Below are positions 13,644 to 62,680 of a DNA stretch of 64,000 bases, in pieces (position 1 is the stretch's first letter; each line of letters starts with the position of its first letter). The stretch is from assembly GCA_024274875.1 (NCBI GenBank), contig JAJSAH010000017.1, forward strand, positions 34,897-98,896, read 5' to 3'. Under the pieces are notes generated by a model, which made no database searches, was not told where the DNA came from, and saw only the letters and a list, made by a program, of their open reading frames with translations. The stretch is from an archaeon. GTDB taxonomy: Archaea > Micrarchaeota > Micrarchaeia > CAILAH01. Position numbers and translations under genes: made by a program.

Positions 13644-13649
13644 TGCATC

Positions 13650-17832: not shown

Positions 17833-17949
17833 TGCCAACGGCCATAGGGAAGGGGAAACGCCTGTTCCCATTCCGAACACAGAAGCTAAGCCCTTCCACG
17901 GTGTTGCTGGTACTGCCCTTCGGGCGGGAAGGCGCACTGCTGTTGGCAC
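17833..17949 (+). rRNA. rrf: 5S ribosomal RNA, not linked to 16S/23S within this window
   Basis: Contains GCCAACGGCCATAGGG...CCCATTCCGAACACAGAAGCTAAGCCC...GTTGGCA. The terminal helix closes as GCCAAC/GTTGGC. Confidence 0.9.
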
Positions 17950-19167: not shown

Positions 19168-19240
19168 CGTTAAACATAAAACATAATTATTTAAATATTG
19201 TCACCATATTTTAACATATTTGTTAAAAAATAGTGATGTT

Positions 19241-19813
19241 ATGAGATTGGTTGATATGTTTAACAGAATCAAATCATCAGGAAAGTTGGTTTATGGAATA
19301 AATGAACTGAGCAATCTCCTAGGCATCAGAAAAAATGTGCTAAGCATATATGTGAACAGAATGTGCAAACAAGGGCTTGCAAACAGAATCGGTAGGAAAA
19401 TTGTGTTCACGGACAATGATTTTGTAATCGCTTCACAACTCATAGAGCCATCTTATATATCAATTCACAGCGCCTTATACTTGCACAAAGTAATACAACA
19501 AATACCGCAAAAAATCGAATCTGTCAATCCTGCAAACACCTTCAAAATAGATGGATATATATACTATAAAATCAATCCAAAACTATTCTTTGGATATGAA
19601 AAAAAGAGGTTTGCTGAAAGTTATGTGTTTTTGGCAACTCCCGAGAAAGCGGTTTTGGACGGAATTTATCTCTCAAAGATACCTCTAAACATATTGCCGG
19701 AAATAATTGAATACTTAGACAAAAGAGTTCTAAAAAAAACTGCTGAACGGATGAAAAAAACCTCTGTTAGAGGCACAAAAAAAACTTATAAAATCATAGA
19801 GAAGTGGTTATGA
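19241..19813 (+). CDS. abiEi: AbiEi-like antitoxin / transcriptional regulator (type IV TA)
   Basis: About 190 aa, sitting immediately upstream of and overlapping an AbiEii-family gene. The N-terminal region looks like a winged helix. The ORF track starts at TTG 19220. Confidence 0.65.
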   Translation: MRLVDMFNRIKSSGKLVYGINELSNLLGIRKNVLSIYVNRMCKQGLANRIGRKIVFTDNDFVIASQLIEPSYISIHSALYLHKVIQQIPQKIESVNPANTFKIDGYIYYKINPKLFFGYEKKRFAESYVFLATPEKAVLDGIYLSKIPLNILPEIIEYLDKRVLKKTAERMKKTSVRGTKKTYKIIEKWL

Positions 19814-20568
19814 TGCTAACGCGTGATGAACTAATAAGCATTGCAAAACAGTTCGGCAACAAACCATGGCAACAGGAAAAACATTATGTGCAGAGCGCTG
19901 TAATTTACTCCATTGCAGACCTCCCTTTAGTTTTCAAAGGGGGCACATATCTTTGGTTCTTCCATGGACTGCCAAGGTTCTCAGAAGATTTGGATTTTAC
20001 TTCTACCGGTAAGATCTCACTGAAGACCATCGCTGAAAAAGTTAGAAGAGGATTGGGCATGTTCGGAATGCATTCAGAAATCAGTCAATCAAAAACAAAA
20101 GAGAAAAAAAATTCAATGATATTGAGAATCGATGCAAAAGGGCCATTATACGCTAATCATTTATCAAAAACATTCGTCTACATAGAAATTAGCAGAAGAG
20201 AAAAATTGCTGCTCAAACCGATAAATCTGATTCTGAGAATGGATTATTACATGATTCCGCAGAAAGCTGTGTTGGGCATGAACTTATCTGAAGTTGCCGC
20301 AGAGAAAGTCAGAGCAATTTTAACAAGAGATAAGGCAAGAGATGTCTATGACCTGCATTTTCTGGTTAAATATAAGGGCATTAAGTTTGATCCAGACCTT
20401 GTTAATGCAAAACTCTCATATTACGGGTTAAAATATGATAAGAAAAAGTTCATATCTAAATTGAATAAGATTGAAGAATATTATGCTGATGAATTGTCAG
20501 TGCTAACAAACAATCCCATCCCTGATTTCAGCAAGGTAAAGGGTTTGCTGGCTGAATGGGTTGGTTAA
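19810..20568 (+). CDS. abiEii: Nucleotidyltransferase AbiEii/AbiGii-family toxin (DUF1814)
   Basis: Contains EKHYVQ...LVFKGGTYL...RFSEDLDFT, characteristic of AbiEii. The ATGA overlaps the abiEi stop. Confidence 0.82.
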   Translation: MMLTRDELISIAKQFGNKPWQQEKHYVQSAVIYSIADLPLVFKGGTYLWFFHGLPRFSEDLDFTSTGKISLKTIAEKVRRGLGMFGMHSEISQSKTKEKKNSMILRIDAKGPLYANHLSKTFVYIEISRREKLLLKPINLILRMDYYMIPQKAVLGMNLSEVAAEKVRAILTRDKARDVYDLHFLVKYKGIKFDPDLVNAKLSYYGLKYDKKKFISKLNKIEEYYADELSVLTNNPIPDFSKVKGLLAEWVG

Positions 20569-20585: not shown

Positions 20586-21365
20586 TCAAAACTCTTCATT
20601 ATGCAAAACTTGATTTAAACTCATCCTATTCTTCTCATGACCTTCCTCAGCTGGATACCCTAACGGAAGAACTGCAACTGGCTCGACATAATCCGGCAAT
20701 TTCAGGATTTCTTTAAGCGCGCCGTTATTGAAAGCGCCCACCCAAACGCTTCCTAAACCCCTATCAGCAGCAGCTAACTGAATGTATGCAGAAACTATGC
20801 ATGCATCTGCAACTGCATAGAATTCCTCGCCTCTTTTACCATATTTTGAACCACTCTTCTTTCTGTTAGCGCATACAACAATAACAATTGGAGCTTCCAT
20901 AATAAAATCTTGTTCAAAACATGCGCTTGCAATCTTTTTCTTCCTTTCCGCATTCTTTACCAAAATAAATTCCCATGCCTGCAAATTGCCTGCGCTGGGC
21001 GCTAATATCGAAGTTGAAAGAATATCATTGATAACAGCATCAGAAACATCATCTGGTTTATACGCCCTTATGCTTCTCCTTTTCAGCGCAAGGTCTTTGA
21101 ATGCGCTCTTAAGTGCAATTATTTGATAGCCATATTTATCAACATCATCTTTGGGCCAAAAAGCAATATCCTTGGTCTTTGCCACATAAGTTATTTCTTT
21201 CTCAATAACTCTTCCTGTATATTTCTTTGTTTCAGGATCCCATTCGCGCAAAATTAAAACATCTACTGGCTTGCATTCAAAATCTGCTAACCTAATCTCA
21301 AATGTCTTATCTCCAGAAACAACCTTATCAAAATATTTTGGCCAGATCTTTTTTTCGATTTTCAT
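20586..21365 (-). CDS. Fusion protein: N-terminal DUF3850/ASCH-like domain plus C-terminal nitroreductase domain
   Basis: The N-terminus KIWPKYFDKVVSGDKTFEIRLADF...LREWD...YTGR follows the DUF3850 pattern. The C-terminus RRSIRAY...APSAGNLQAW.F follows the nitroreductase pattern. Confidence 0.78.
   Translation of the reverse strand: MKIEKKIWPKYFDKVVSGDKTFEIRLADFECKPVDVLILREWDPETKKYTGRVIEKEITYVAKTKDIAFWPKDDVDKYGYQIIALKSAFKDLALKRRSIRAYKPDDVSDAVINDILSTSILAPSAGNLQAWEFILVKNAERKKKIASACFEQDFIMEAPIVIVVCANRKKSGSKYGKRGEEFYAVADACIVSAYIQLAAADRGLGSVWVGAFNNGALKEILKLPDYVEPVAVLPLGYPAEEGHEKNRMSLNQVLHNEEF
20632..20655. repeat. Direct repeat, right copy: ttctcatgaccttcctcagctgga
   Basis: Exact match to 19144-19167. 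It lies inside the 3' end of the nitroreductase CDS. Confidence 0.9.
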
Positions 21366-21396
21366 AATTTATATTTATGCGCGATCTTATAAAAAT

Positions 21397-22356
21397 ATGG
21401 AATTGAGAAATAAAACAACTGTTGCAATAAAACCAAAACCTCCTTACAATTTCGATGCTAACTTTCATAAGCCGTCGCATTTCCCGTCATCAGATAACTG
21501 CTGGGAAAAAGGAAAATACTGGATAACTATGGTTTGGAAAGGCAGAGTGTTAGGGTTGAAGTTTGAAAATATGGGGACAATAGGAAAACCTGAAATTAGA
21601 GCAAGCATATACTCAAAGAAAAAATTATCAAAAAAATTTGTTGATGAATTGGTTGAAGAAATTAGGTGGAGGTTTAATTTTGATTCAGATATTTCTGGGT
21701 TTCATAAAAAGTTCGGGAAGAGTGGGCTCTTGGGAAAATTTATAAGAAAATGGAAAGGCATGAAGCCAGTGGCAGCCAATTCTCTGTATGAAACATTAGT
21801 GATATACATAGTTCTTCAAAACGCAACCGTTAGAAGATCAGTGCAAATGCTTGAAAACTTGTTTAAACGGTTCGGAAAGAAAGTAAAATTTGACCGGAAA
21901 ATTATGTCTGCATTCTGGGAGCCGGAAGAGATTGCAAAAGCTGATGAGCAGGAGTTAAGGGATTTGAAGGTTGGGTACAGGGCTAAATTTCTTAAAAGGA
22001 TCTCTGAGCAGTTGGCAAATAATGAAATAGATGAGTTTGCGCTTAGGAAAATGGCAAAGGAAGATGTTAAAAAAGAGATGTTAAAATTATATGGGATTGG
22101 GCCTGCATCAATTGAATACCTGCTTTTTGAGGATTTTTATTTTTATGATGCGCTGGAAACAATACCGCCCTGGGAACAGAAAATATTGTCAAGGTTGATA
22201 TTCAATAGGAAAACAGTTCCTGCTGAAAAAATACTGAAATTTTTTATGAAATTTAAACCATACCAAAAATTAGCATTCCATTATGTTTGGGAAGATTTGT
22301 TCTGGAGAAGGAAGCATCAGCATATTGAATGGCTGGAAAAGGAGATAAGGTTATGA
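21397..22356 (+). CDS. HhH-GPD superfamily DNA glycosylase (AlkA-like)
   Basis: Contains PPYNFDANF at the N-terminus and the helix-hairpin-helix LKLYGIGPASIEYLL. ATG 21397 is preferred over the longer track ORF, which overlaps the divergent gene. Confidence 0.72.
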   Translation: MELRNKTTVAIKPKPPYNFDANFHKPSHFPSSDNCWEKGKYWITMVWKGRVLGLKFENMGTIGKPEIRASIYSKKKLSKKFVDELVEEIRWRFNFDSDISGFHKKFGKSGLLGKFIRKWKGMKPVAANSLYETLVIYIVLQNATVRRSVQMLENLFKRFGKKVKFDRKIMSAFWEPEEIAKADEQELRDLKVGYRAKFLKRISEQLANNEIDEFALRKMAKEDVKKEMLKLYGIGPASIEYLLFEDFYFYDALETIPPWEQKILSRLIFNRKTVPAEKILKFFMKFKPYQKLAFHYVWEDLFWRRKHQHIEWLEKEIRL

Positions 22357-23142
22357 TTCTTCATGATATGCGCATAAAACAATATCCGCGCTTCCATTTG
22401 AAACCTTTATGCCCCTAAAATACTTGCAAACAGAAACATTCTTTACGGCGCATTTGTGCTCATTAGATTTTTCAGCTATATTCCAAGGGCACCTGTCCTG
22501 CTTCCAGCTTATTTTGTTTTCAGATGTTGTTAAATCTATATCCATGTTCGCCCCTTTCAATTCTATTATTTTTTCGTTTTTCTCACCAAGCAAAGACCTA
22601 ACTTTTTTAAGGATTAAATCAAATCTGCAATATCCTGCTTTCTCATTAAAATGGCCTGCATTCTTAACAAGAATTAAATCAACCCCTAAATTATTTGCAA
22701 GATGTTATGCTTTCTCTAAAGGAACATAGGGATCATTATCGGAGTGATACACATAAAATTTCTTACAATTTTGTCTTATCTTAGACCAATCAAAGTTCGG
22801 TTTAATGAAAGATTTATTGATGTTATCAAAATCAGGATTTTCCAGCAGGTCTATAAATCCTGAAACAAAGAAAGCTGCCTTGATTGGTTTGTTCTGCATT
22901 TCAAGAATGTTTAGCAAAAATGCAACTCCTAAACTATGACCAATAATAATAGAATTTTCGTTCAGATATTGTTCATAACCCTTAAAAATTTTGAGCCAAT
23001 TTTGAAGTGATTGATTTGCAGGAGTTGGAAATTTTGGAACAAAAACTCTGCAACCCAATCTTTCAAGCTCGCATTTGAGCCAGGGAAACCAATTTTCACC
23101 AGGATTTCCATACGCACCATGAATAATGAAAATGTTGGGCAT
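22351..23142 (-). pseudogene. RBBP9/YdeN-type serine hydrolase interrupted by an in-frame TAA (22707-22705). The frame stays open into a C-terminal Cys-rich extension.
   Basis: The catalytic Ser (GHSLG) and Asp (SDNDPYVP) come before the stop. The catalytic His (NAGHFN) comes after it, in the same frame (own translation of 22594-22704). There is no in-frame ATG, GTG or TTG before the His. Confidence 0.7.
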
Positions 23143-23192
23143 GGCAGAATATTGCTTGGCAAAATATTTAAGCATAATAGAGAAACAAAATC

Positions 23193-23936: not shown

Positions 23937-23965
23937 AAATTTATCCTTCTTAAATGAACTTATAT

Positions 23966-24130
23966 AGCCCCGTCGTCTAGTGGTCAAGGATGGCAGGCTC
24001 TGGACGAATGGCCCCCAGCGCGGCCCTTCGCAACCCACGGCAACCAGCCCTTATGGGGAAACCTGCAGACTGCGGTTCGAAAGAAGGGCGCCGTGCCCTT
24101 AATGAAAAACCGGAAATCCGCACGGGGCTA
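23966..24130 (+). tRNA. tRNA-Gln (anticodon CUG) with two introns: 24004-24060 (canonical 37/38, 57 nt) and 24082-24116 (T-loop 59/60, 35 nt)
   Basis: Hand fold: acceptor AGCCCCG/CGGGGCT, D-arm GTCT-AGTGGTCAA-GGAT, anticodon arm GCAGG-CTCTGG|A-CCTGC, T-arm TGCGG-TTCGAA|T-CCGCA. Discriminator is A. Confidence 0.85.
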
Positions 24131-24132
24131 TG

Positions 24133-30809: not shown

Positions 30810-31928
30810 ATGTATATTCCTAACAAACTTATGGAAGTTGCCGACTTAGAGTATTATTATTTAGCAAAGGAAATGAATGAGAAGCTGAGCGGTTGCAGGA
30901 TTAAAAAAGTGTTCCAGATTTCTGAGAATGCGTTCAAGATTAATGTTGCGGGGGCTAATGGAAAGCATGAGATGCTCATAAAACTGCCTGAATACGCTAC
31001 ATTGACTTCTAGAGAAATTGCTGCTCCAAAAACACCATCAAATTTCTCTATGCTGTTAAGAAAGCAGTTATCCAATGGAATAATTGCCTGCGTCAAGCAG
31101 CACGATTTTGAGAGGATAATTGAGATTGAGGTGGGAGCAGGAGAGATGATGCGCAAACTTATACTTGAGCTGTTCTCCAAAGGAAATATCATAATATGCA
31201 ATGATAAGGAAATAATTACTGCGCTGTATAGGAAGGAGGAATGGAAAAGCAGGGTTATAAGAAAAGGAATAAAGTATGAATATCCGCCTGCAAAAATTTC
31301 CCCTTTCGATGCAAAACCTGAACACTTGGGCTTAAACTCAAAAAACACAATTATGGCTGGCGTGCTGTCCCAAGTATCGCTTGGCCCAAAATACCTAGAA
31401 GAAGCATTCGCGCGCGTTGGAATCAATCCTGCGATGAAGGTTGAGCTGTCTGATAACGAAAAGCAATGCCTGCATCAAGCAATTTTAGAAGTGTGCAGCG
31501 AGGGAACATTCATTATGTATTTAAAGGATGGCGCGCCCACAGATTATGCTGTGTGCAACCTGTCAAAGTACAAAAATTATGAACATAAAATATTCGATTC
31601 AGCCGCTGAATTGATTGATGCATTCTATTCGCCTGCGGAAACCAGTGCTTCAGATGAAACCTCTGAAAAAAAAGATGAAATCATTGCGCATCAATTTGCT
31701 GAGAGATTAAACGCGCTCAAATTCGAGGCGCAGTTATCCAGAGCTAAGGGAGATTGCATATATGAGCACTTTTCTGAGATTGAGGAGTTAGTTGAGGAGA
31801 TAAGAGCGCTCAGAAAAAAAGGCATGAATGATACGGAGATAAACAAACTGATTGATAAAAAGTTTCCAGGCATGCGCGCAATTATTAAAGGAAACACGCT
31901 GAAAATTAAGATGAAAGCGCGAGAGTGA
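30810..31928 (+). CDS. NFACT-N (FbpA/Rqc2-NEMF-like) protein lacking the NFACT-R/DUF814 region
   Basis: The N-terminus L..E...L.G.RI.KVFQ...F.I followed by an HhH-like segment follows the NFACT-N pattern. At 372 aa it is much shorter than the ~650 aa I recall for typical archaeal homologues. Confidence 0.65.
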   Translation: MYIPNKLMEVADLEYYYLAKEMNEKLSGCRIKKVFQISENAFKINVAGANGKHEMLIKLPEYATLTSREIAAPKTPSNFSMLLRKQLSNGIIACVKQHDFERIIEIEVGAGEMMRKLILELFSKGNIIICNDKEIITALYRKEEWKSRVIRKGIKYEYPPAKISPFDAKPEHLGLNSKNTIMAGVLSQVSLGPKYLEEAFARVGINPAMKVELSDNEKQCLHQAILEVCSEGTFIMYLKDGAPTDYAVCNLSKYKNYEHKIFDSAAELIDAFYSPAETSASDETSEKKDEIIAHQFAERLNALKFEAQLSRAKGDCIYEHFSEIEELVEEIRALRKKGMNDTEINKLIDKKFPGMRAIIKGNTLKIKMKARE

Positions 31929-33613: not shown

Positions 33614-33874
33614 ATGCCTAAGTATGTAATTGCAAAGCAGCTTGCGGGGAAGAAGATCATAACCAGTGATGGTGAAGATGTTGGAAGGCTTGTGGATATA
33701 AAGATTGCTGAGACGGGGGGAAGGTTGCAGACGCTGGTTCTTGAGCCTAATTATGACAGCCCTATCGCATCTAAGTTGGAGAAGGATGAGCAGGGCCATT
33801 CATTGCTGCCTTACGATGCAGTCATGGCGGTATCTGATTTTATTATTGTCGATAAGAAAACCCTCTCAGTTTGA
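33614..33874 (+). CDS. PRC-barrel domain protein
   Basis: 86 aa containing GKKIITSDGEDVGRLVDIKIAETGG.L..LVLEP. Confidence 0.6.
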   Translation: MPKYVIAKQLAGKKIITSDGEDVGRLVDIKIAETGGRLQTLVLEPNYDSPIASKLEKDEQGHSLLPYDAVMAVSDFIIVDKKTLSV

Positions 33875-35899: not shown

Positions 35900-36535
35900 A
35901 TGAGGATTGACTGGAAAGCCGCATACCTGCTGTATCTGTTGTTTGCTGGTTCGCTGCTTGCGCCTGCTATATTGGCTCCCGTGTTTGCAACTGCTGGAGT
36001 CGATTATTTTGCAGCAGTTATATATAACTTCACAAAACCTTTATGCCACCAATACATATACAGATCCTATTGCATTTTCAACAGCAACGGAACGCTGAGC
36101 GTGGAAGAATGCATCCCGAAAAGCGAAGAGAATGCAAGCTTTGTGCAGACAAAATTTTCCGGAAGGGTTTCCAACCTAAGCAAGTTTGTGTACAGGAGAG
36201 AAGATGTTGGAGTGAATAGAAGCGAGTATGTGGAAAGATACGGCAAGCGAGGATATAAGTTCGCAGTTTGCGCAAGAGACCTTTTTCAGTATGCAGGTTT
36301 GTTGGTCGCTGCAATTGCATACATTCCATTAAGGAAACATGTTAAGTCGCTTCCATCAACGCTGTACATCGTGATTGCAGTTATTCCGCTTGCGATCGAT
36401 GGAACAGGGCAGATGATTGGGTTATGGGAAAGTTTGAATGTTATGAGAGCGATAACTGGGTTCATCGCAGGAACAGTGCTGGGATATTACATACTGTTCC
36501 TTCTTGCAGACATATTCGAAAACCTAAAATTCTAG
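35900..36535 (+). CDS. DUF2085-like integral membrane protein
   Basis: Contains the CHQ..YRS motif (KPLCHQYIYRSY) and several TM segments. Confidence 0.6.
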   Translation: MRIDWKAAYLLYLLFAGSLLAPAILAPVFATAGVDYFAAVIYNFTKPLCHQYIYRSYCIFNSNGTLSVEECIPKSEENASFVQTKFSGRVSNLSKFVYRREDVGVNRSEYVERYGKRGYKFAVCARDLFQYAGLLVAAIAYIPLRKHVKSLPSTLYIVIAVIPLAIDGTGQMIGLWESLNVMRAITGFIAGTVLGYYILFLLADIFENLKF

Positions 36536-36570
36536 AATCATTTTTAAATATTAATGGTTCTAATCCACTT

Positions 36571-37989
36571 ATGGATTATTTGAGTTTCGGCACTACCGCC
36601 GAAATAAAAGTTCCTAAGAATCCATTAGAGCAAGTTATAGGGCAGGAGCATGTGCTTGAGATTGCTCACATAGTTGCGAGGCAGAAGCGCCATCTGTTGT
36701 TGGTTGGGCCTCCAGGAACTGGGAAAAGTTTTATTGCGGGCGCGATTGCATCGCTCATCCCGCCGCCTACTCAGCAGATTGCAGTGGTCAGCAATGAAGA
36801 CAACCCCGACAGGCCGATTTTGGAGATTAAAACACGGGAACTGATTGAGAAAGAAAAGCGCGAGATGAGGCGCGCTAAATTGGTTGACCCGCGTGATGTT
36901 CCGTATTATGTTTCAGAAAGGTTGGGGTTCAGATGCAGGAAATGCGGGACAATCAGTGATCCTGAATCAAACATATGTTTATATTGCGGTGCTGAAAAAT
37001 ACCGAAAAACCAAGAATATTGAGGATATGTTCTCTGATATGCCGCGCATAACCCGCGATGATAAAGTGTTCATGAAGCGCAGAAATGGAAAAAGTGGTGA
37101 AGAGGAATATATATATGAGCGCAGGGGAAACAAGGTTAAGGTATACAAAAGCAAGCTCATGGATATTTATGAACAGCAAAGAAAGGTTATAGTGCCTATA
37201 GATAGGAAAACATTCGTGCAAGCGACTGGTGCAAGCGAAGCTGAATTGCTTGGTGATGTGAGGCATGATCCGTATGGAGGGCATCCTGAGATAGGGATAC
37301 CGCCTCATGAGCGCGTAATTCCCGGCGCAATACACGAAGCGCATGAAGGCGTGCTTTTTATAGATGAGTTGTCAACGCTCGGCGAACTGCAAAGATATCT
37401 TCTAACAGCTATGCAAGAAAAGAAATTTCCCATACTCGGCAGGAACACGACAAGCACAGGAGCAGTTGTTAGAGTGGATAATGTGCCATGCGATTTTGTG
37501 CTCGTTGGCGCAATAAACATAAATGATGTAGGTTCAATACTTCCGCCGCTTAGATCGCGAATTATCGGTTCGGGTTATGAGGTATTGCTGAACACTGTTA
37601 TGGAGGACTGCGATGAAAACCGTATGAAACTCGTGCAGTTCACTGCACAAGAGATAAGCAAAGATAAGAGGATACCTCACGCAACTGCTGATGCATGCGA
37701 ACAAATAATAAGGGAGGCGCAGTTAAGGGCAAGGCAGATTGATGGGAAGGATGGCCTGACCTTGCGATTGAGAGATTTAAGCGGAATTATTAAGATGGCA
37801 GGCGATATAGCAATTGTAGAGAGCTCAGAAACAATAGATAAAAATCATGTGCGCAAAGCAATACAAAGGGCAAGGTCTATTGAAGAACAGCTTTTGGATA
37901 GTTATGGAAGCGCATGGAAAGCAGGAATGAGCGATTATGCTACGCTCAGAAGGAAAAAGAGAGATGGATTCACAAGCGAGATTATATAA
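36571..37989 (+). CDS. LonB-like AAA+ ATPase without a protease domain. A Zn-ribbon insert sits where LonB has its TM hairpin.
   Basis: Contains VIGQEHV...LLLVGPPGTGKSF (Walker A), VLFIDEL (Walker B) and the CRKCG...CLYCG insert. The protein ends about 25 aa after the AAA+ lid, and I could find no Ser-Lys protease region. Confidence 0.72.
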   Translation: MDYLSFGTTAEIKVPKNPLEQVIGQEHVLEIAHIVARQKRHLLLVGPPGTGKSFIAGAIASLIPPPTQQIAVVSNEDNPDRPILEIKTRELIEKEKREMRRAKLVDPRDVPYYVSERLGFRCRKCGTISDPESNICLYCGAEKYRKTKNIEDMFSDMPRITRDDKVFMKRRNGKSGEEEYIYERRGNKVKVYKSKLMDIYEQQRKVIVPIDRKTFVQATGASEAELLGDVRHDPYGGHPEIGIPPHERVIPGAIHEAHEGVLFIDELSTLGELQRYLLTAMQEKKFPILGRNTTSTGAVVRVDNVPCDFVLVGAININDVGSILPPLRSRIIGSGYEVLLNTVMEDCDENRMKLVQFTAQEISKDKRIPHATADACEQIIREAQLRARQIDGKDGLTLRLRDLSGIIKMAGDIAIVESSETIDKNHVRKAIQRARSIEEQLLDSYGSAWKAGMSDYATLRRKKRDGFTSEII

Positions 37990-39171
37990 TTAAGAAAACA
38001 TTTTTTCGATTATTTCCTTAATTTTGCGCGCATCGTATGTTAGCTTAATGAATCTTGTCTGGCCTCGCGTGCCTTTGCCCGATGATGAGAGCGTAATCAA
38101 GCCAAGCATGTCTAAATCGTGCAAATATTCCGAAAACCATCTTGCGCTCCGCGGAGAAACATTGAGCGATTTGCACGCGTTTGAATAACTCTCATAAACT
38201 TCACCAGACATGAATACATCTTTCCCGTCATCGCCAAGGCGCTTGTATGAACTGCCTTTCAGTTGCAGCAAGGATATGCCATACAGCGCAATTTGCTCAT
38301 GCTGCGGAAGCGTGGCGATTGCCTCCACAACCAAATCTTCATCAACACTGCGCCTAGCCTGCTCAACATGGCCTTCAGTAACCTTGGCATCGCAATTATC
38401 ATTCGCAAGCATACCTGCTTTATGGATCAGCTTTAAAGCGTATCTTGCATCGCCAGTCTCCCTTGCAGCAAGCGCGGCAGCCATGCGGAGCGCCGCCTGG
38501 TCGCAGGTTCCCTTCTTAAACGCGTTTTCAGCGCGCTGCTTTATGATTTCATACAATTGCGTAGCGTTGTACGGGCGGAACACAATCTCCTTCTCATATA
38601 GGGCGCTTTTGCTGCGCGGATCAAGCTTATCTTTAAAATGCAGCCTGTTAGATATGCCAATTATGGAAATGCTTCCCTGCTCAAGCTCATCATTAATGCG
38701 GGTTAAAGTGTAAACTAAATCATCAACATCCCTAACCATATCCACTTCATCGAGCACTACCACCAAATGCATGTTATTTTCTTCAACCCATTCCAACATC
38801 GATTCATACAACTTCGATAAGGGGTAGCCGATCTTTGCTTCATACCTGCATATCTCGCTCACAACTTTAAACACAATTTTATAGCGAGAATCATAAATCC
38901 TGCAGTTCATGTATTTCATCAAAGCATTCTTCTTCATCTGATTAAACTTATCCATAACGCTTTTTGAACAGCAGGTTTTCCCTGTGCCCGTTTTGCCGTA
39001 CAAAAACATGTTTTTTGGTTTGGTGTTCTTGAGCGCAGGCATAACCGTTTTCATTATAGATTCAATTTCTTTCTCTCTGTGAGGCAGCACCTCTGGAACA
39101 TAATGCGGCGATAGGACATTCATATCGTTGAAAATTCCACTCTGTTGCATGAGATCTTCAAACGTTAACAT
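37990..39171 (-). CDS. cdc6: Orc1/Cdc6 replication initiator
   Basis: Contains LYGKTGTGKT (Walker A), VVLDEVD (Walker B) and a C-terminal winged helix. ATG 39171 is preferred. Confidence 0.92.
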   Translation of the reverse strand: MLTFEDLMQQSGIFNDMNVLSPHYVPEVLPHREKEIESIMKTVMPALKNTKPKNMFLYGKTGTGKTCCSKSVMDKFNQMKKNALMKYMNCRIYDSRYKIVFKVVSEICRYEAKIGYPLSKLYESMLEWVEENNMHLVVVLDEVDMVRDVDDLVYTLTRINDELEQGSISIIGISNRLHFKDKLDPRSKSALYEKEIVFRPYNATQLYEIIKQRAENAFKKGTCDQAALRMAAALAARETGDARYALKLIHKAGMLANDNCDAKVTEGHVEQARRSVDEDLVVEAIATLPQHEQIALYGISLLQLKGSSYKRLGDDGKDVFMSGEVYESYSNACKSLNVSPRSARWFSEYLHDLDMLGLITLSSSGKGTRGQTRFIKLTYDARKIKEIIEKMFS

Positions 39172-39305
39172 GGATACCCTCCAAAAAGCCGTGAGTATTT
39201 TAGAGCAGTAAAACAATATATACTTAATTCGCCTTAGCGAAACGCTGCGCGAGAAGGCATTACATCTTTATATTCTTTATTGTTCCAATATAATACGGTG
39301 GTATC

Positions 39306-39671
39306 ATGGGAATGTTGCAAAAGTTTTCTGACGCTTTAGGGCTCGGCGGAAAAGAAATGAATGTGCAAGAATATCTTGATGGGGAGGATTTGGAGAACCT
39401 TGAGGATGAAGAGGAGGAAGCGCTTGCGTATGTGAAGCCTGTGGCGCTTGAAAGTCCTAATGTGATTCCTGAAATTAAGAATTAATTGCAGTCAGGCAAC
39501 CTGATTTTGTTGAACATCACACCTATGCTCAAAGATGAAAGAATGCTTTCAGATATCATCGATTCGCTGAAAACTTACATTAACTCAATAAAGGGAGATA
39601 TAGCAAGAATAGATAATGAGAAAATACTATTAACGCCTTCTAGAATGAAGATTGTTAAAAGAAGAAGATAA
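39306..39671 (+). CDS. sepF: Cell-division protein SepF homologue interrupted by an in-frame TAA at 39483-39485
   Basis: The sequence MGMLQKFSDALGLGG...AYVKPVALESPNVIPEIKN*LQSGNLILLNITPM...GDIARIDNEKILLTPSRMKI aligns across the stop to archaeal SepF (recalled Haloferax DVIAIKDAVYDGNLVIADIT...GDIV...ITP). It is 121 codons in total. Confidence 0.75.
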
Positions 39672-40352
39672 TCTTTTTTCCACTTCTTTAAGCACGCACA
39701 CAATTGATCTGGCTTCCTCAATGTTTAGTTTGCTTCTTGATAGCATATTATTGAATGCTTTTTTGCATTTTGATGGGTTTTTGAGCTGACCTTTTGGAAT
39801 CAGGCCAACGATGTTTGAAAAATATGATTTAAGCGCGCGCATAGTGCCTGGATCTGCTTCAATATTGTTGCCGCGCCTCTCCATGCCCATATTCCGCAGC
39901 TCGTGCAGAAAAACAGCAACTGCATTTGAGAGATTCATAGATGGATAGGCATCAGTAGTTTGTATGTAAGAACAAATATCACATCTGTTAAGCAAGGATT
40001 TAGGCAGGCCGTTGTCCTCTCTTCCAAAAACAATTGCTGCATTTTCAATAGACGCAACAACTTCGCGAAGGTCTGACAAAGGGATCGCTTTATTCAGATC
40101 GCGCCTCCCCTTGCTCAGCGAAGAAGTAGTGCCTATAACTGGATAGCAATCTGCAATCGCCTCATCAAACGAACTATGTATGGAGGCATTCCTAATGAGA
40201 GATGAGGCATGCTTTGCATACTTCGCAGCTTCAGGGCCGAGTTTTGCAATTGGATTAACTATCCGCAGGTCGTCATACCCAAAATTTTGCATAACTCTGC
40301 ATATCTTTCCAACATTCATGTCATACATTGGCTCTATCAAAATAACTCGCAA
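39630..40352 (-). CDS. SpoU/TrmH-family RNA 2'-O-methyltransferase (TrmJ-like)
   Basis: Contains RVILIEP..D.NVGKICRVMQNFG...LRIVNP. A probable TTG start at 40352 lies 4 nt after the upstream stop. The track's longer ORF overlaps that upstream gene. Confidence 0.72.
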   Translation of the reverse strand: MRVILIEPMYDMNVGKICRVMQNFGYDDLRIVNPIAKLGPEAAKYAKHASSLIRNASIHSSFDEAIADCYPVIGTTSSLSKGRRDLNKAIPLSDLREVVASIENAAIVFGREDNGLPKSLLNRCDICSYIQTTDAYPSMNLSNAVAVFLHELRNMGMERRGNNIEADPGTMRALKSYFSNIVGLIPKGQLKNPSKCKKAFNNMLSRSKLNIEEARSIVCVLKEVEKRLSSSFNNLHSRRR

Positions 40353-40356
40353 CGCA

Positions 40357-40878
40357 TCACCTACGTTCCAGCTGAACCAAATGCAACTGCTCAAAAAACA
40401 TGCGCTCTGTGCGCAGCAACTTCCATGAATATCCCAATGATTCAGCATGCGCCTTGTATTCATCATATCCTCGATCGGAAAGCACCATTAAAATCTTGCC
40501 GTTGGGAGATAAGAACTGCTTTGCATCGCAAAGAAACCTGCGTATTACATCCGCGCCATTTTGCATATAGGTCCATGCAATATCCTGCGGTTCTTCATCA
40601 TCTAAATAGGGCGTGTTAAACGCAATCAAGTCATATCTTCCATTTATATTCGAGAAAAGGTCAGATACTATGAATTTTGCATTTGGATGCCCAACATTTT
40701 TCATCGCGAAATCTACTGCATTTTTATTGATATCTGCGCATACGATCTCTTTCGCGCGTGCAATGCTGTTCGCCTGAATGCCCGTGCCGCAACCCATATC
40801 AAGGAATCTCGCGCACCTCCTCTTGCTCAACTCAGAGCTAAGCAGGTATGAATCATCGGACGGCTCATACACATACAT
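40357..40878 (-). CDS. HemK-related class I methyltransferase (archaeal Mtq2-like)
   Basis: Contains VYEPSDDSYLL, DMGCGTGI (SAM motif I) and NTPY in place of NPPY. Confidence 0.72.
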   Translation of the reverse strand: MYVYEPSDDSYLLSSELSKRRCARFLDMGCGTGIQANSIARAKEIVCADINKNAVDFAMKNVGHPNAKFIVSDLFSNINGRYDLIAFNTPYLDDEEPQDIAWTYMQNGADVIRRFLCDAKQFLSPNGKILMVLSDRGYDEYKAHAESLGYSWKLLRTERMFFEQLHLVQLERR

Positions 40879-40928
40879 GCGCGTATTACGCTGAAAAAAT
40901 TTATATTATAGAATTCGCTTATATATGC

Positions 40929-41285
40929 ATGAAACAGAAATCGAGCAAGATTAGAGATATAGAAAAAAAATACATGAATAAGATGAAATCATTCAATGTA
41001 AAAGTCGAGCAAATAATATGCTCGGGAGATTTGGATAAAATTGCATCAAAAGTGAATGCACGCATTTTGAAAGCATTGCTGTATGAAGAGGAGTCTGCGT
41101 TGATAATATTCAAAGAAATCAAACTTGCCTCAAAACAGGAAAGCATTAGGTTGGAGGAGGTGTTGCAAACAACTACTGCGAGCTTTATGGAAAGAGTATG
41201 CTCCTTGATATCATTATCGACATTCAGCGATGATGAAGAGGTTAAGGATATTGCAGATTCAGCAATCGAAAATATGAAAACATAA
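40929..41285 (+). CDS. Hypothetical helical protein, tandem paralogue A
   Basis: About 45% identical by eye to the next gene (KYMNKMKSFNVKVEQI... versus RYINKMKSFNVKVEEI...). Confidence 0.5.
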   Translation: MKQKSSKIRDIEKKYMNKMKSFNVKVEQIICSGDLDKIASKVNARILKALLYEEESALIIFKEIKLASKQESIRLEEVLQTTTASFMERVCSLISLSTFSDDEEVKDIADSAIENMKT

Positions 41286-41320
41286 CAAGAATTTAAATTT
41301 TGCAATGCATGTGTTTAAAC

Positions 41321-41689
41321 ATGCAGCATAATATGTCAAGGTTCAAGAGTCTCGAGAAGAGATACATAAATAAAATGAAATCGTTCAATGTAAAAGTTGA
41401 AGAAATACTTCGCCCAGTTAAAATTGATGAATGCTTGCATAAAATCAACCCTGAAATTTTGAGGAGATTGTTGTATGATGAAGAAGATGCGGTCAATATA
41501 TATAATGAGATAAGGAGAGTATCCTTGCAGGATAGAGTTGATCTAGCTAACGGTTGCTTGCATGCAGCCACAGTTAAATTTATTGAGCGAATTTGCACAT
41601 TATTGTCAATATCATTATTCAGTAAGAATGAGGAAATCAGAAAGATCGCTGATGAGGCGATTAGGAATTTAAGTGAAAGAATGAATTAA
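41321..41689 (+). CDS. Hypothetical helical protein, tandem paralogue B
   Basis: Paralogue of 40929..41285. The start is uncertain (ATG at 41300, 41321 or 41333). Confidence 0.5.
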   Translation: MQHNMSRFKSLEKRYINKMKSFNVKVEEILRPVKIDECLHKINPEILRRLLYDEEDAVNIYNEIRRVSLQDRVDLANGCLHAATVKFIERICTLLSISLFSKNEEIRKIADEAIRNLSERMN

Positions 41690-41722: not shown

Positions 41723-42841
41723 ATGGTAAAGATTGCTGTTTTAGGAGATTTTCATCTTGGATATGGAAGGTTTTATGATGACAGTTTTACGCAGGCAAAA
41801 ACTGCGCTTATGAGCGCGCAGGAGCGTGCTGACCTGCTTATTATCGCTGGCGATATATTCGACTCGCGCGTGCCGAAGCCAGAAGTTATTGAGAGAGCGT
41901 TTGAGGTGTTCTCAAAAGTGAGAAAAAAAGTGTTCGTAATACACGGAACGCATGAGCGCAGGCCAAAAGGATTCACAACGCCTGTGGATCTGCTGTGCAA
42001 GGCAGGGTTTGCCGAATCTTGCCATAATAATCCTCTCGTATTTGAGAAAGATGGGAGAAGAGTGCGTGTTGTTGGGATAGGGGGAGTTCCAGAGGAGTAT
42101 GCATCTGCGGCAATGCAGAAACTCTCGCCAAAACCTATTGAAGGAATGTTCAACGTACTGGTGTTTCATCAAAATATCAAGGAATTAATGCCTATGGTTA
42201 AGGATGGAATCAGCATGGAAGACCTGCCTGAAGGGTTTGATTTGTACATAGATGGGCACCTGCACAAGAACTATGAGCTGCGGAAAGGTGAAAAACTGCT
42301 TATAATACCTGGCAGCACAGTGATAACCCAGCTTAGAAAGGAAGAGAGCAAGAAAGGGTATTATTTGTTTGACACTGAAACAAAAACTGTTGAGTTTGTT
42401 GAAATTAACGCACGGCCGTTCATACATGTCTCAATTGAGCCGAAAGCAGATATTGATATCAAGCAAACCGTTAAGGAAAAGTTGTCTGAAATCGATTTTT
42501 CTGCAAAACCTATAATACGGCTCGATATAATCAACAATACTGGAAATGACATCAGCCATGAGGATATGAATTATATTAAGGCGATGTATTCAGAAAAAGC
42601 CCACTTATTCATAAATGCATCCAGCCATGAGGCAGATTTATCACCGGAAGAAATAGGTGTCCAAGTGAAGACAGAATCTATAAGAGAGAGGGGAATCGCC
42701 ATACTCAAACAGATTGCCACATCTAAAAACCTGGCTTTCAAGAATGTTGAGGAAGTGTTTGATATGAGCTGTGAAGCAAGCGATGATGAATTGTTCGACT
42801 ATTTCAAAAGGATTTACTCAAACAGAAGTGATGGTGGATGA
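41723..42841 (+). CDS. mre11: Mre11-type DNA double-strand-break repair nuclease
   Basis: Phosphoesterase motifs GDFHLG, AGDIFD, IHGTHE, VFHQ and DGHLH. Confidence 0.85.
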   Translation: MVKIAVLGDFHLGYGRFYDDSFTQAKTALMSAQERADLLIIAGDIFDSRVPKPEVIERAFEVFSKVRKKVFVIHGTHERRPKGFTTPVDLLCKAGFAESCHNNPLVFEKDGRRVRVVGIGGVPEEYASAAMQKLSPKPIEGMFNVLVFHQNIKELMPMVKDGISMEDLPEGFDLYIDGHLHKNYELRKGEKLLIIPGSTVITQLRKEESKKGYYLFDTETKTVEFVEINARPFIHVSIEPKADIDIKQTVKEKLSEIDFSAKPIIRLDIINNTGNDISHEDMNYIKAMYSEKAHLFINASSHEADLSPEEIGVQVKTESIRERGIAILKQIATSKNLAFKNVEEVFDMSCEASDDELFDYFKRIYSNRSDGG

Positions 42842-43515
42842 GGAAAGATAAGGAATCGTTCATAAATAAGTTAAAGAGGGATGTTGAGGAAGGGTATTCG
42901 ACTGTATCTGAAGCAGTGCTAAGCGGGATCAACCTAACGAAATCGCGCTTGGTCCTTCTCACGAAATATGCGGTGTTGACAATAATACTTGCATTGCTGT
43001 ATTCAGCAGTTTTTCAGCAATCAGAATACGCTGCATACACTATCTTCGTTCCTGTAGGAGTGCTCATACTCTACTTCTACCACGAAGTTCTTGAAGTGAA
43101 AGTGAAAAATCTGAAACGATTTGCGATAAACGCGCTGTTTCTTGGGATGCTGCTGCTTGCTATAGCGGTTCTATTCAGCGCTACTACATACGAAAACAAT
43201 TCATCATCACCGTTATCAATAATCGCATCATCAGCCGCAATATTCATGTTTGCTGTGTTCATGTTCGCCCCAATATATATTGCGAAGGCTGGCGCAAGCC
43301 CCATATCAAGCATAAAAAGCGCGTTCAAATTCATAACAAGCAATGCTATGAAAACCATGTTTTACATATTTATGCTCGTGCTAACAATCTCCATCGCATC
43401 TTCACTGCCTGCATTGGCAGGAATGATGATATTGAGCCCAATAGTGTTTTTCTACATGTCATACGCTGCATTCATATTTATAATTGTTTTCTGGAGCGCT
43501 TGCAAAAAAGCTTAA
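42838..43515 (+). CDS. Hypothetical polytopic membrane protein
   Basis: 225 aa with about 5 hydrophobic segments. The ATGA overlaps the mre11 stop. Confidence 0.5.
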   Translation: MRKDKESFINKLKRDVEEGYSTVSEAVLSGINLTKSRLVLLTKYAVLTIILALLYSAVFQQSEYAAYTIFVPVGVLILYFYHEVLEVKVKNLKRFAINALFLGMLLLAIAVLFSATTYENNSSSPLSIIASSAAIFMFAVFMFAPIYIAKAGASPISSIKSAFKFITSNAMKTMFYIFMLVLTISIASSLPALAGMMILSPIVFFYMSYAAFIFIIVFWSACKKA

Positions 43516-43548
43516 ATTAATGCATGTTCACTTTTATGCGGTGTAACT

Positions 43549-43962
43549 ATGAGTTATGTAAAGAGTGCTCTTATTGGATTGGGAGTGGGAATAGTGCTGG
43601 GAGTAGTCGGTCTTATTCCCTTTATTGGTGCTGTAAATTGCATCCTGTCTCCTTTGCTGGCGTTAGCGGCAGGGTATTTCATAGTGGATATGTGCAAGAT
43701 ACGAAAAGAAGATTGGGGCGCGCTGGCGATTAACAGCGCAGTATTCTCGATCGTAGCTGCTATAGTGGGAGCTGTGTTTGGCTTGTTGTCAATGATGTTT
43801 GGTATAGGCATAAGCGCGATTGGAGGCGGTGATGCAGGAGATATGATGATTGGGGCAGGCTTAGGAATTGCTGCGCTTGTGATGGGAGTGGTATTCGGAT
43901 TTATACAAGGTCTTGTTCTGGCTATTATAGGTGGGGCAATTAAGATGTTCACCTCCAAATAA
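43549..43962 (+). CDS. Gly/Ala/Ile-rich small membrane protein
   Basis: 137 aa with 4 hydrophobic segments. The equally long antisense ORF is a compositional shadow. Confidence 0.45.
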   Translation: MSYVKSALIGLGVGIVLGVVGLIPFIGAVNCILSPLLALAAGYFIVDMCKIRKEDWGALAINSAVFSIVAAIVGAVFGLLSMMFGIGISAIGGGDAGDMMIGAGLGIAALVMGVVFGFIQGLVLAIIGGAIKMFTSK

Positions 43963-48643: not shown

Positions 48644-49108
48644 TCAAAGCCCATGGAGTTTAAGCAATTCTATCATATTGCGATTGTTGGAATGATATGC
48701 AAGCGTCATCAATGTTAAACCATCTAAGCAGGATTCAAGCTTCGCATGGTTCAGAATAAGGTGTTCTGCTACTTCAACACTGCCGCGAAAGCATGCATGC
48801 ATCAGCGCTGTCCATCCATAGTTGCTAACTGCATTCACAAAAACGCCATTTTCAACTAAGAACTTCACTGCATCGAGATTTCCATGAATGCTGAACCACA
48901 TCAATGGAGTAGCGCCTATGCCATCGCTCGCATTAATCTCTGCTCCTAAAGACAGCGCAACTTTTGCCAAGCGCAGGTCATTGTACCAGCCAGATTCAAA
49001 ATATTTTTGATTCAAGAATTCCAGAGTTTTCGAGTTGGGCTTTTTGAATCCAATTACTCTGAAAGCCCTCCTGCAAGTACCTGTTTTTCGGGCATGCTCA
49101 AAAACCAT
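48644..49108 (-). CDS. Ankyrin-repeat protein (about 3 repeats)
   Basis: Contains G.TPLMWFSIHGNLDAVKFLVENG and GWTALMHACFRGSVEVAEHLI. Confidence 0.8.
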   Translation of the reverse strand: MVFEHARKTGTCRRAFRVIGFKKPNSKTLEFLNQKYFESGWYNDLRLAKVALSLGAEINASDGIGATPLMWFSIHGNLDAVKFLVENGVFVNAVSNYGWTALMHACFRGSVEVAEHLILNHAKLESCLDGLTLMTLAYHSNNRNMIELLKLHGL

Positions 49109-49137: not shown

Positions 49138-50082
49138 TTATTCCTTAAGTATAATTTCGCTGGCCCTCTTGGCAAGCATGACTTGATCAACAACTTCTTT
49201 AAGAGAATCATACCCTTTCTCATTTATTACATCTATGGCGCTTATGCCGTCTCCATCTTTTTTGCGAGGGTCTGCGCCGTGCAATATTAAGAAATTTGCT
49301 ATCTCTATCCTGCCTCTAAGCAAGGCAAACAGTAATGGAGTTCTTCCTTCAATATTTGAAACATTCACATCTGCATTGTTTAGCACAAGAAACTTAACAA
49401 TATGCAAATGATTCTTCCAACAAGCATACATCAACGCAGTATCGCCATACTGGTTTGCATAATTCAAATCAGCGCCTCTTTTTGCAAGAACCTCAACAGC
49501 CCCGCCGCTGCCTTCCCAACATGCAGCCATGAGCGGTGTGGAACGCGTGCTATTCTCTAAATCAAGGATTGCGCCATTATCCAAAAGCAGATGAATTAAT
49601 GGCGTATCATTAGCTATGCATGAGATATGAAGCGGCGTATTTCCTTCTAAATTGGCCAGATTAACATCTGCATGCGCGCTAACCAAAATTTCAGCTGCCT
49701 CATAATGCCTGTTCTCGCACGCAACATGAAGCGCAGCATTTCCCATAATATTTTGATGGTTCACATCTGCATCATGGTTAACAAGAACGCGAACTATCCT
49801 CGCAAACCCTCTGCTGCTCGATTCAATCAGCGGAGTGTTTTTGTATGAATTCATCGTGTCAACATCAGCGCCTCTGAGAATGCTCTGCACAACTCTTTCA
49901 TAATTCCCATATACTGCGCTCATGTGCAATTGTTCATTAACGACCCTTTTATCCTCGCTTTTAGACATAATTCTCGATTTTATCTCATCACCATGCATCT
50001 TAGAAAAATCGTGCTCTGCAACTGGCTGCTTTTTCTTTTTAGTGAGCACAATTATTGCGCCTTTGCCAGATTTCTCTTTCAT
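49138..50082 (-). CDS. Ankyrin-repeat protein (about 7 repeats)
   Basis: Reiterated G.T.L..A......iv..Ll..gAdvN units throughout. Confidence 0.85.
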   Translation of the reverse strand: MKEKSGKGAIIVLTKKKKQPVAEHDFSKMHGDEIKSRIMSKSEDKRVVNEQLHMSAVYGNYERVVQSILRGADVDTMNSYKNTPLIESSSRGFARIVRVLVNHDADVNHQNIMGNAALHVACENRHYEAAEILVSAHADVNLANLEGNTPLHISCIANDTPLIHLLLDNGAILDLENSTRSTPLMAACWEGSGGAVEVLAKRGADLNYANQYGDTALMYACWKNHLHIVKFLVLNNADVNVSNIEGRTPLLFALLRGRIEIANFLILHGADPRKKDGDGISAIDVINEKGYDSLKEVVDQVMLAKRASEIILKE

Positions 50083-56536: not shown

Positions 56537-57562
56537 ATGCGCGCGCAGATTAACAGAAAAGATAATGAGGTAAAATTTACTGCTGAGACATTCGAAGATT
56601 TGTGGAATATGTACAAGCTCATTACGCCTGGGTGCAGAGTAAAATCAAGAACTACGCGAAAATACAAACCTCCTGGAAGCAATAAAGAAGAGAGGATTTC
56701 TGTGTATGCAATCATAAATGCAGAGAAGGTGGAACTTCACAAGCACTCAAACAGAATCAGAATCACGGGCAAGATTGAATACATAAGGCCAGAGTATATT
56801 GCGCCGCTCGGCTCATACCATACAATAGATGTCGGCATAGGAAATGAAATTATTGTAGAAAAAGAATGGAAGAATTATGAATTTGATAGGATTAATGAGG
56901 CAATTAAATCCAGCAGAAGACGGCTTGTTTCCATTGTTCTAGTGGATTATGATACTGCAACATTTGCAGCGCTAAGGCAGTATGGAATAGATTTTGGATT
57001 GGAATTGCATAATAGAGCGAAAAAGAAGGATAAAAATGTTGAACTTGGAGAGTTTTTCAAGGAGATTGCTGATGAGATGAAAAAAATCGATGGATTGATA
57101 TTGCTAGGCGGACCAGGGTTTGTTAAGGAGATGCTGCGCAAATATGTGCAGGAGAATCTCCCCGAAATTGCAAAACGCATCAAAGTAGTGAATGCATCAA
57201 ACGCTGAGAGGAGCGGAGTGTATGAACTCGTGAAAAGCGATGAGATGCAAAAAATCATGGAGCGCGAACATATGCATGCAGTGTTCAGGGATGTTGAAAC
57301 ATTCTTAAAATGCGTTGCGAAAGGGGATGGATTGTGCGCATATGGAATCGAACAACTGAATAAAGCAGTTGAGTATGGAGCAATAGATGTGTTGATTATA
57401 ATAGATAAGCTAATTAGAGAGAATGAAAGGTTTGAGCGCATGCTTGAAAATGTCAAAGCAAAAGGTGGAAGGATAAGCATAGTTCCATATGAAAGCCAGA
57501 TCGCAGAACAGATTAATGCGTTCGGAGGAGCGATTGCGCTCTTAAGATTTAGAATAGAATAA
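56537..57562 (+). CDS. pelA: Pelota (aPelota / Dom34 homologue)
   Basis: 341 aa with an eRF1-like three-domain layout and the central GGPGF motif. It is divergent from abce1. Confidence 0.88.
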   Translation: MRAQINRKDNEVKFTAETFEDLWNMYKLITPGCRVKSRTTRKYKPPGSNKEERISVYAIINAEKVELHKHSNRIRITGKIEYIRPEYIAPLGSYHTIDVGIGNEIIVEKEWKNYEFDRINEAIKSSRRRLVSIVLVDYDTATFAALRQYGIDFGLELHNRAKKKDKNVELGEFFKEIADEMKKIDGLILLGGPGFVKEMLRKYVQENLPEIAKRIKVVNASNAERSGVYELVKSDEMQKIMEREHMHAVFRDVETFLKCVAKGDGLCAYGIEQLNKAVEYGAIDVLIIIDKLIRENERFERMLENVKAKGGRISIVPYESQIAEQINAFGGAIALLRFRIE

Positions 57563-61862: not shown

Positions 61863-62133
61863 GCGAGCGGTTGGCGGCAGCTAACGGCGCCGCATTTTTG
61901 CGTGCGCTGAGGAAGGTCCGCCCACGCAGAGCTGAAACTTCCGTAAAGGAAGGGAAGGGAACAGAAACGAAACTGCCTTTGCCATACGGGATGAAGTTAT
62001 TCTGACATCGGCAATGGTTAGGTGAAACGGCCCTTCCGGATGCTGTGAGCGTGCAAGCCTTTGCGGCGCTTAGATTAATGCTGCGGGAACAAATTCCCTA
62101 AAAAAACAGAAGGCGGCCTATGCCAGCCGCTCT
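61863..62133 (+). ncRNA. rnpB: RNase P RNA (archaeal type A-like, about 270 nt)
   Basis: P1 pairs GAGCGGTTGGC (61865-75) with GCCAGCCGCTC (62122-32). CR-I is GAGGAAGGTCCGCCC, CR-V is ACAGAAGGCGGCCTA, and GGTGAAACGGC is internal. Confidence 0.8.
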
Positions 62134-62680
62134 AATAACCCATGCTGATTTCCCAAGAAGTCAAACCTCCAGCAGAACGAAGGATAGCAATGCCTTCCTT
62201 CCAACCATGATCTATTGCATAGTCAAGCGCAGTTTTTCCGTGCAAATCAACCAAATTTACATCCGCACCGCGGTCTATTAACAACTCTAAAGCATTTTTG
62301 CTGCGATACAGCACCGTGAATATGAGAGCTGTCCTCCCATAAAGATCTTTAAGATCTTTATCAGCGCCGCGGTCTAATAACAGGCGAACCATATTGACAT
62401 CATCTCCAACCACTGCGTGAGAAAGCATCGTTCCTCCTAAATCAAATATGCCATCTGCGTTTGCACCCCTAATTATGCAACGCCTCGCTTTATTCAAATC
62501 GCCTCTGCGTATGGCATTTAGAAGCTCCTTATTCAGCTCATAGATCTGTTCGCTAGAGAGGTCTCTTTCAAACTTAATTACTCTGAACTGCGAGGCATCC
62601 CTATCGCGAACAGTTCGGTCTCTTTTCGCAGCCCTCCTGCATCTGCTAAACGGAATTATTTTACCCATAAGCATATTCAA
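62132..62680 (-). CDS. Ankyrin-repeat protein (about 4 repeats)
   Basis: Contains GGTMLSHAVVGDDVNMVRLLLDRGADKD, GRTALIFTV... and GKTALDYAIDHG. Confidence 0.8.
   Translation of the reverse strand: MNMLMGKIIPFSRCRRAAKRDRTVRDRDASQFRVIKFERDLSSEQIYELNKELLNAIRRGDLNKARRCIIRGANADGIFDLGGTMLSHAVVGDDVNMVRLLLDRGADKDLKDLYGRTALIFTVLYRSKNALELLIDRGADVNLVDLHGKTALDYAIDHGWKEGIAILRSAGGLTSWEISMGY

Follow-up and report, generated by a model that had tools for sequence, protein, structure and literature searches.

The gene at positions 39306..39671 of the 64-kb window, by which we mean the whole 64,000-nt stretch of DNA analysed here, is a genuine, orthodox sepF of a Micrarchaeota (DPANN) archaeon, and we confirm that its reading frame contains a real in-frame stop in the sequence. 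An isolated in-frame TAA also interrupts rpoB'' and a gene for a Ser_hydrolase, so that at least three genes in the window are affected. On balance, and without great confidence, we favour the inference that the three TAAs are base-level consensus errors or non-viable alleles that would be untrue of the working genome. The sepF lesion is most likely of an ordinary kind; it is most likely neither a designed split nor a new type of split gene. The initial annotation described the stop in sepF and missed those in rpoB'' and the hydrolase gene, and with these the question shifts from the biology of SepF to the history of the sequence.

The sequence is exactly as the initial annotation claimed: sepF is cut mid-domain by a TAA with a TTG directly next to it, and the junction reads GAA ATT AAG AAT TAA TTG CAG TCA GGC AAC. 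The parts of the gene are as follows.

39297..39301, + strand: Shine-Dalgarno-like GGTGG, 5 nt 5ʹ of the sepF ATG, read directly from the sequence
39306..39671, + strand: sepF, with its ATG at 39306, 59 sense codons, TAA at 39483-39485, TTG at 39486, 61 codons and a terminal TAA at 39669-39671
39306..39482, + strand: sepF codons 1-59, with the conserved N-terminal motif MG(M/I)LQKF..ALGL, an acidic linker, β1 (residues 43-47) and α1 (residues 51-58)
39483..39485, + strand: sepF codon 60, a TAA that replaces an invariant Glu codon
39486..39671, + strand: sepF codons 61-121 (β2, α2, β3, β4 and a basic tail) and the natural TAA terminator

The N-terminal 59 and C-terminal 61 codons were proposed to equal one normal archaeal SepF. 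Indeed, the joined length of 59 + 1 + 61 = 121 aa is the modal length of Micrarchaeota SepF relatives. With X at the stop, residues 43-116 of the joined sequence match the Pfam SepF profile (PF04472) over positions 1-72 of 72 with a score of 45.9 bits (cut-off 27 bits), such that the profile bridges the stop. The C-terminal half alone matches only profile positions 20-72, and the N-terminal half alone gives no match to PF04472. When compared with a profile made from the relatives, the two pieces match at positions 1-58 (E = 2.8e-24) and 60-120 (E = 5.5e-29). Hence, the two pieces are more than chance ORF noise. A second, intact sepF had been named as an observation that would speak against a broken gene; the profile built from the relatives detects none elsewhere in the window.

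Structural comparisons also join the two halves. The joined sequence aligns through the stop to PDB entries 3zig (E = 5.6e-9) and 3zie (E = 2.1e-8). An AlphaFold model of the joined product, built with 24 sequences, has block-mean pLDDT values of 88-93 over residues 41-110, and its elements are β1 (43-47), α1 (51-58), β2 (66-70), α2 (78-94), β3 (98-101) and β4 (106-110). The best Foldseek matches of the model are 3ZIE and 3ZIG, with target-normalised TM scores of 0.87-0.90 and rmsd of 0.9-1.3 Å (TM 0.90 and rmsd 1.0 Å on 3ZIG_A). In the model, the stop falls directly after helix α1 and parts β1-α1 from β2-α2-β3-β4, which bears out the suggestion that the cut severs the conserved fold. At the N-terminus of the aligned relatives, M1 and G2 are invariant and L4, A10, L11 and G12 nearly so; residues 5-10 are predicted, with low confidence, to form a short helix, which is followed by an acidic linker of low pLDDT.

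The window's gene thus shares its domain and fold with archaeal SepF (PF04472), as represented by the structures from P. furiosus (3ZIG), A. fulgidus (3ZIE) and M. smithii (7AL1), and its length of 121 aa and N-terminal motif with the 56 Micrarchaeota SepF relatives. Unlike archaeal SepF, its frame is broken at Glu60, and, as written, the putative membrane motif and the elements for binding FtsZ are never joined in one polypeptide. SepF of M. smithii has been solved together with FtsZ: the tail of FtsZ lies in a groove between α2, β3 and the η1 turn, and dimerization is via the β-sheets (PMC8178401). Read literally, the window's sepF uncouples the putative anchor, which lies before the stop, from the ligand site, all of which lies after it.

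Position 60 shows no variation among the relatives checked. Database searches gave 56 SepF relatives, all of them Micrarchaeota (DPANN) SepF by annotation or typing, mostly 119-123 aa long and covering the whole query. SepF is uninterrupted in all 56 of these proteins and in 79/79 genomic orthologues. Residue 60 is Glu in 23/23 aligned proteins, codon 60 specifies Glu at each of 63 loci (GAG 48, GAA 15), and Glu also occupies the aligned position in 3zig and 3zie. In the closest relative, L082 (85% amino-acid identity), codon 60 is GAA. Together with the invariance of Glu60, this means that the sepF stop corresponds to a single G→T change. The natural terminator of the gene, itself a TAA, coincides with the end point of its relatives. 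The adjacent codon 61 specifies an invariant Leu, for which the 63 loci use CTG (24), CTC (20), TTG (8), CTT (7), TTA (3) and CTA (1). Judged from this alignment, the TTG after the stop is the ordinary Leu61 codon, and its adjacency to the stop is a coincidence. There is no Shine-Dalgarno-like motif 5ʹ of this TTG or of the next in-frame ATG, unlike the true ATG with its GGTGG; Shine-Dalgarno-like 4-mers precede 20/65 gene starts in the window, compared with a background of 9%.

The initial annotation also placed sepF divergently from orc1/cdc6, and this is correct. The two genes that flank it are intact:

37990..39216, − strand: orc1/cdc6, with Cdc6_lid and Cdc6_C domains, divergent from sepF, likely start ATG at 39171
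39630..40466, − strand: SpoU-family RNA methyltransferase gene, convergent with sepF and overlapping its 3ʹ end

There are 57 full-length orthologues of orc1/cdc6, with conserved synteny, and the gene order dhh-DUF2085-lon-like-orc1-sepF-spoU-methyltransferase-mre11-like is kept in relatives. Two tandem paralogous ORFs (40848..41285 and 41300..41689, + strand), 45% identical and with no Pfam match, lie between the methyltransferase gene and the mre11-like gene. They are absent from otherwise syntenic relatives, which indicates a lineage-specific insertion or duplication. A LonB-like AAA+ ATPase (36424..37989, + strand) combines a LonB_AAA-LID, a Mg_chelatase-type P-loop and a zinc ribbon, with 66-78% identity in relatives; no Lon protease domain was detected in it. 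Located 5.4 kb 5ʹ of sepF is an intact gene for a PRC-barrel protein of 86 aa (33614..33874, + strand), a type of protein reported in archaea as an FtsZ/SepF-associated division factor. For FtsZ itself, the 64-kb window contains neither a GGGTG[STA]G tubulin signature nor a Pfam match. At 1544..2822 (+ strand), a gene for a GTPase is followed by genes for the origin-associated proteins OapB and OapC, 35 kb away from orc1/cdc6; OapC matches profile positions 2-44 of 133 only.

Several further features of the window are recorded here as separate observations. Three ankyrin-repeat proteins (48644..49108, 49138..50082 and 62132..62680, − strand) are unusual for archaea and recall host-interaction proteins of symbionts. 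An AbiEii-type nucleotidyltransferase toxin gene (19804..20568, + strand) is overlapped by a preceding ORF of 197 aa with no Pfam match, and the pair (19220..20568, + strand) is likely a type IV toxin-antitoxin system. GC-rich stretches that appear intergenic include genes for a stand-alone 5S rRNA (17834..17948, + strand) and an archaeal RNase P RNA (61865..62132, + strand), both with Rfam matches above gathering scores. The gene for an NFACT_N protein of only 372 aa (30810..31928, + strand) stops 4 nt short of that for MetRS. The protein matches the profile from 8 to 365 (of 456 positions), has no sign of the usual C-terminal NFACT-R part and is either truncated or a short variant of the DPANN archaea.

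The two other genes with an internal TAA are both on the reverse strand:

12948..14414, − strand: rpoB'' (RNA polymerase subunit B''), 488 codons, in-frame TAA at codon 255 (13650-13652), within Rpb2 domain 2
22606..23175, − strand: Ser_hydrolase (PF06821) α/β-hydrolase gene, in-frame TAA at codon 157 (22705-22707)

The RpoB'' sequence around its stop is ...EIDASKTY*DALDYVGRKAAPGQ... Pfam Rpb2 domains 1 and 2 both bridge the stop, and PDB 4qiw_B aligns through it with residues 6-467. There are at least 120 relatives of RpoB'', and every listed one is intact at ~488 aa, the length of the joined product. In the closest relatives among the matches listed, codon 255 alternates between Asp and Glu, and the nearest has GAT. 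At columns invariant in the 120 relatives listed, the window's RpoB'' has no private substitution. A TTG is located two codons 3ʹ of the stop, with no Shine-Dalgarno-like motif 5ʹ of it. The window also has the usual B''/B' pair.

The hydrolase reads ...PLEKA*HLANNLGVDLILVKNAGHFN... around its stop. The joined product matches PF06821 at profile positions 2-168 of 172 with 76.5 bits, compared with 43.4 bits and positions 2-134 for the N-terminal part alone. S81, D148 and H175 are invariant in an alignment with 24 relatives of ~185 aa, and the catalytic His (in AGHFN) is downstream of the stop, so it is lost from the literal product. The column that holds the stop is variable among relatives, with Glu the commonest residue, and is a sense codon in 24/24. 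No ATG, GTG or TTG occurs within 30 codons after the stop. The frame of this gene runs on to 22351, with a Cys-rich tail of 64 codons (22351..22545, − strand) that starts MDIDL, has no Pfam match and is absent from the ~185-aa relatives. Adjoining the hydrolase gene is one for a protein of the HhH-GPD base-excision glycosylase family (21271..22356, + strand; 361 aa, partial domain match), which may be relevant to the handling of G→T (8-oxoG) mutations.

How unusual are three such genes in one window? We screened for split genes using all same-frame neighbour pairs in which both segments had at least 45 codons, together with Pfam annotation of the window. This screen found no gene in the window interrupted by TAG, TGA or a frameshift. 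Three internal stops in ~19,800 codons of the window compare with no true internal stop in ~79,000 orthologous codons of relatives, sampled as 299 full-length orthologue alignments from related genomes. This excess is significant (Fisher p = 0.013, spoU excluded); four apparent internal stops in the relatives proved to be spoU terminators overrun by the alignment. Under uniform single-base mutation with the codon usage of the window, 4.6% of changes are nonsense, 40% of those create TAA, and GAA→TAA by itself makes up 8.9%. The probability that all three stops are TAA would then be ~0.06, and the all-TAA pattern hints at a specific process. We found no methylation-type or error motif common to the three sites beyond W-[G/T]AA. 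Other candidates from the screen were rejected as split genes: the run upstream of PolB consists of separate genes and the 5S rRNA, peroxiredoxin and desulfoferrodoxin are distinct genes, and memA/memB (42838..43962; same-frame pair 42838/43549) are separate and in different frames in L003 and L004.

Synonymous differences far exceed nonsynonymous differences on both sides of the stop in sepF and rpoB''. Relative to L082, sepF has 23 synonymous and 9 nonsynonymous codon differences in the N-terminal half, and 23 and 8 in the C-terminal half. For rpoB'' and its nearest relative, these counts are 121 and 20 in the N-terminal half, and 118 and 9 in the C-terminal half. Hence, the two genes show purifying selection and no decay. 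We observed neither relaxed selection nor any further lesion in sepF or rpoB''; each has a single lesion and preserves its full length. From these comparisons, the stops in sepF and rpoB'' would be either very recent or never events in the organism.

How would such stops have come to be in the sequence? In sepF, the TAA differs by a single G→T substitution from the GAA that L082 has for the invariant Glu60. For rpoB'' and the hydrolase gene we infer the same G→T / C→A class of change, with both stops compatible with G→T on the coding strand. The literal sepF product would be a peptide of 59 residues that keeps the putative membrane motif and has lost β2, α2 and β3. Such a peptide, with no FtsZ-binding groove elements and without most of the β-sheet dimer interface, would be predicted to be inactive. 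The TAAs would have reached the assembled consensus as substitution errors or as rare alleles that are not viable, and the organism itself would then have a normal full-length SepF. Genes with isolated internal stops are found in draft and metagenome-assembled genomes, where they are annotated as pseudogenes and arise by error or recent nonsense mutation. As in the window, those cases involve a single-base change with no other damage and conserved flanks, several unrelated genes per contig are affected, and no relative has the same stop. Unlike those cases, the window has substitutions but no frameshifts, and each of its three stops is a TAA. The absence of frameshifts counts against error as the source, since a substitution-only error profile is needed, and so does the all-TAA pattern. 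Furthermore, a model of random substitution error predicts ~20 other substitutions per nonsense change. We saw no excess of odd residues, in a comparison of low power: RpoB'' has 0 private substitutions at invariant columns where ~0.3-0.5 are expected, and the metagenome scan covered 12 loci only. The junction pattern, with N at the first base of the stop, was not found in the genome and metagenome collections we searched for the same locus in other assemblies. There is also no database record of either half of the window's sepF, or of its Orc1 or MetRS.

Could the window itself provide a means of reading UAA? The sole tRNA found in it cannot do so:

23966..24130, + strand: tRNA-Gln(CUG), missed by ARAGORN and Rfam, with a 57-nt anticodon-loop intron and a 35-nt T-loop insertion

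This tRNA has a perfect acceptor stem with A1-U72, and splicing in silico yields a clean 73-nt tRNA. The GC-rich gap at 23937..24132, which was considered as a possible suppressor tRNA gene, is this two-intron tRNA-Gln(CUG). ARAGORN gives an alternative register with anticodon CTA, for which there is no plausible bulge-helix-bulge, and CTA reads TAG rather than TAA. Tracing multi-intron tRNAs of this kind implies that scans blind to introns under-count the tRNAs of this genome. A protein with an eRF1 domain (56537..57562) was considered as an altered release factor; it has neither GGQ nor NIKS and is encoded beside ABCE1, which identifies it as Pelota.

An alternative explanation is that the three TAAs are real and recently fixed, with sepF a fresh pseudogene in a decaying, host-dependent DPANN archaeon, possibly under a G:C→T:A bias. 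We consider this unlikely. The stops are present in the sequence, internal stops are significantly more frequent in the window than in its relatives, the sepF change is one transversion from the GAA of L082, and the hydrolase is plausibly dispensable. However, this explanation requires an indispensable RNA polymerase B'' to be cut within a domain, the stop in sepF is uncompensated by any second copy in the window, and sepF and rpoB'' have no second lesion or relaxed selection. Archaeal SepF is described as the FtsZ anchor and co-occurs systematically with FtsZ (PMC8178401); a work cited there describes SepF, in its title, as essential in Haloferax. Moreover, a cultivated Micrarchaeota archaeon retains ftsZ, sepF and minD (PMC8784108). 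A different possibility is that sepF and rpoB'' are functional splits, in which translation terminates at the TAA and reinitiates at the nearby TTG, and the polypeptides reassemble. DPANN archaea are known to have split genes, and in archaea rpoB naturally consists of two separate genes, for B'' and B'. Like those natural splits, the pieces described here are adjacent, on the same strand and sum to one protein, and a TTG lies directly after the sepF stop and two codons after the rpoB'' stop. Evolved splits, however, are shared among relatives, lie between domains and come with start signals of their own, whereas the cuts in the window are unique, intra-domain and without Shine-Dalgarno-like motifs. 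The initial annotation suggested that the TAA-TTG junction could support termination-reinitiation. This is not supported: the TTG encodes the invariant Leu61, it is not preceded by a Shine-Dalgarno-like motif, and 0/56 proteins and 0/79 orthologues are split. There is likewise no split relative of rpoB'' among the matches listed. The cut in sepF would part the putative membrane motif from the FtsZ-binding groove and break the β-sheet. Since none of the 30 codons that follow the stop in the hydrolase gene is of start type, one mechanism of restart cannot cover all three genes. The lack of conservation largely refutes functional splits, and we regard them as highly improbable.

We also considered whether TAA is partly read as sense, by an ochre-suppressor tRNA or through leaky termination, such that full-length SepF, RpoB'' and hydrolase are still made. 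All three interruptions are TAA, and two of them are in essential genes with purifying selection on both sides of the stop; a suppressor could be encoded elsewhere, since intron-containing tRNA genes are missed by standard scans. Even so, this is improbable, and its more specific form, an ambiguous intermediate of UAA reassignment (through an ochre suppressor or weakened recognition by aRF1) with the three genes as its first visible casualties, is quite improbable. Genome-wide reassignment of TAA to sense is ruled out, because no other true stop codon is as frequent in the window: roughly one in two ordinary genes finishes with TAA, as does sepF, at the C-terminus that its relatives share. Back-up stops are no closer after genes that end in TAA (median 13 codons) than after those that end in TAG or TGA (6.5 codons). 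The three stops share no common context (AAT TAA TTG, TAT TAA GAT and GCA TAA CAT), and the 120 nt after each show no RNA structure relative to shuffled sequences (z = +0.94, +1.00 and -0.56). They occur in no relative: the position is a sense codon in 63/63 sepF loci, 120/120 listed RpoB'' sequences and 24/24 hydrolases. In the literature searched, we found no earlier case of UAA recoding in archaea, and nothing relevant for Micrarchaeota or DPANN archaea on read-through, in-frame stops or split genes. Programmed recoding, as in UGA-selenocysteine, UAG-pyrrolysine and suppressor tRNAs, also involves in-frame stops in conserved genes under selection. In contrast, the codon in the window is UAA, which is still the main terminator, relatives do not have stops at these positions, no RNA element lies downstream, and no cognate tRNA was found in the window. 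Together, the indispensability of rpoB'', the presence of three lone TAAs and the lack of restart or recoding signals favour a defect at the level of the sequence.

What do these stops mean for the organism? If the sepF stop were real and unsuppressed, this would be an FtsZ-type archaeon without the only known membrane anchor for FtsZ, and with a broken RNA polymerase B''. Such a cell is very unlikely to be alive, and hence the three stops together argue against taking any one of them at face value. A slight chance that this archaeon reads through UAA remains and, if true, would be of real interest. To take the TAA-TTG junction as a designed restart would mislead. Annotation pipelines would label sepF, rpoB'' and the hydrolase gene as pseudogenes, and comparative studies could wrongly score a DPANN lineage as lacking SepF.
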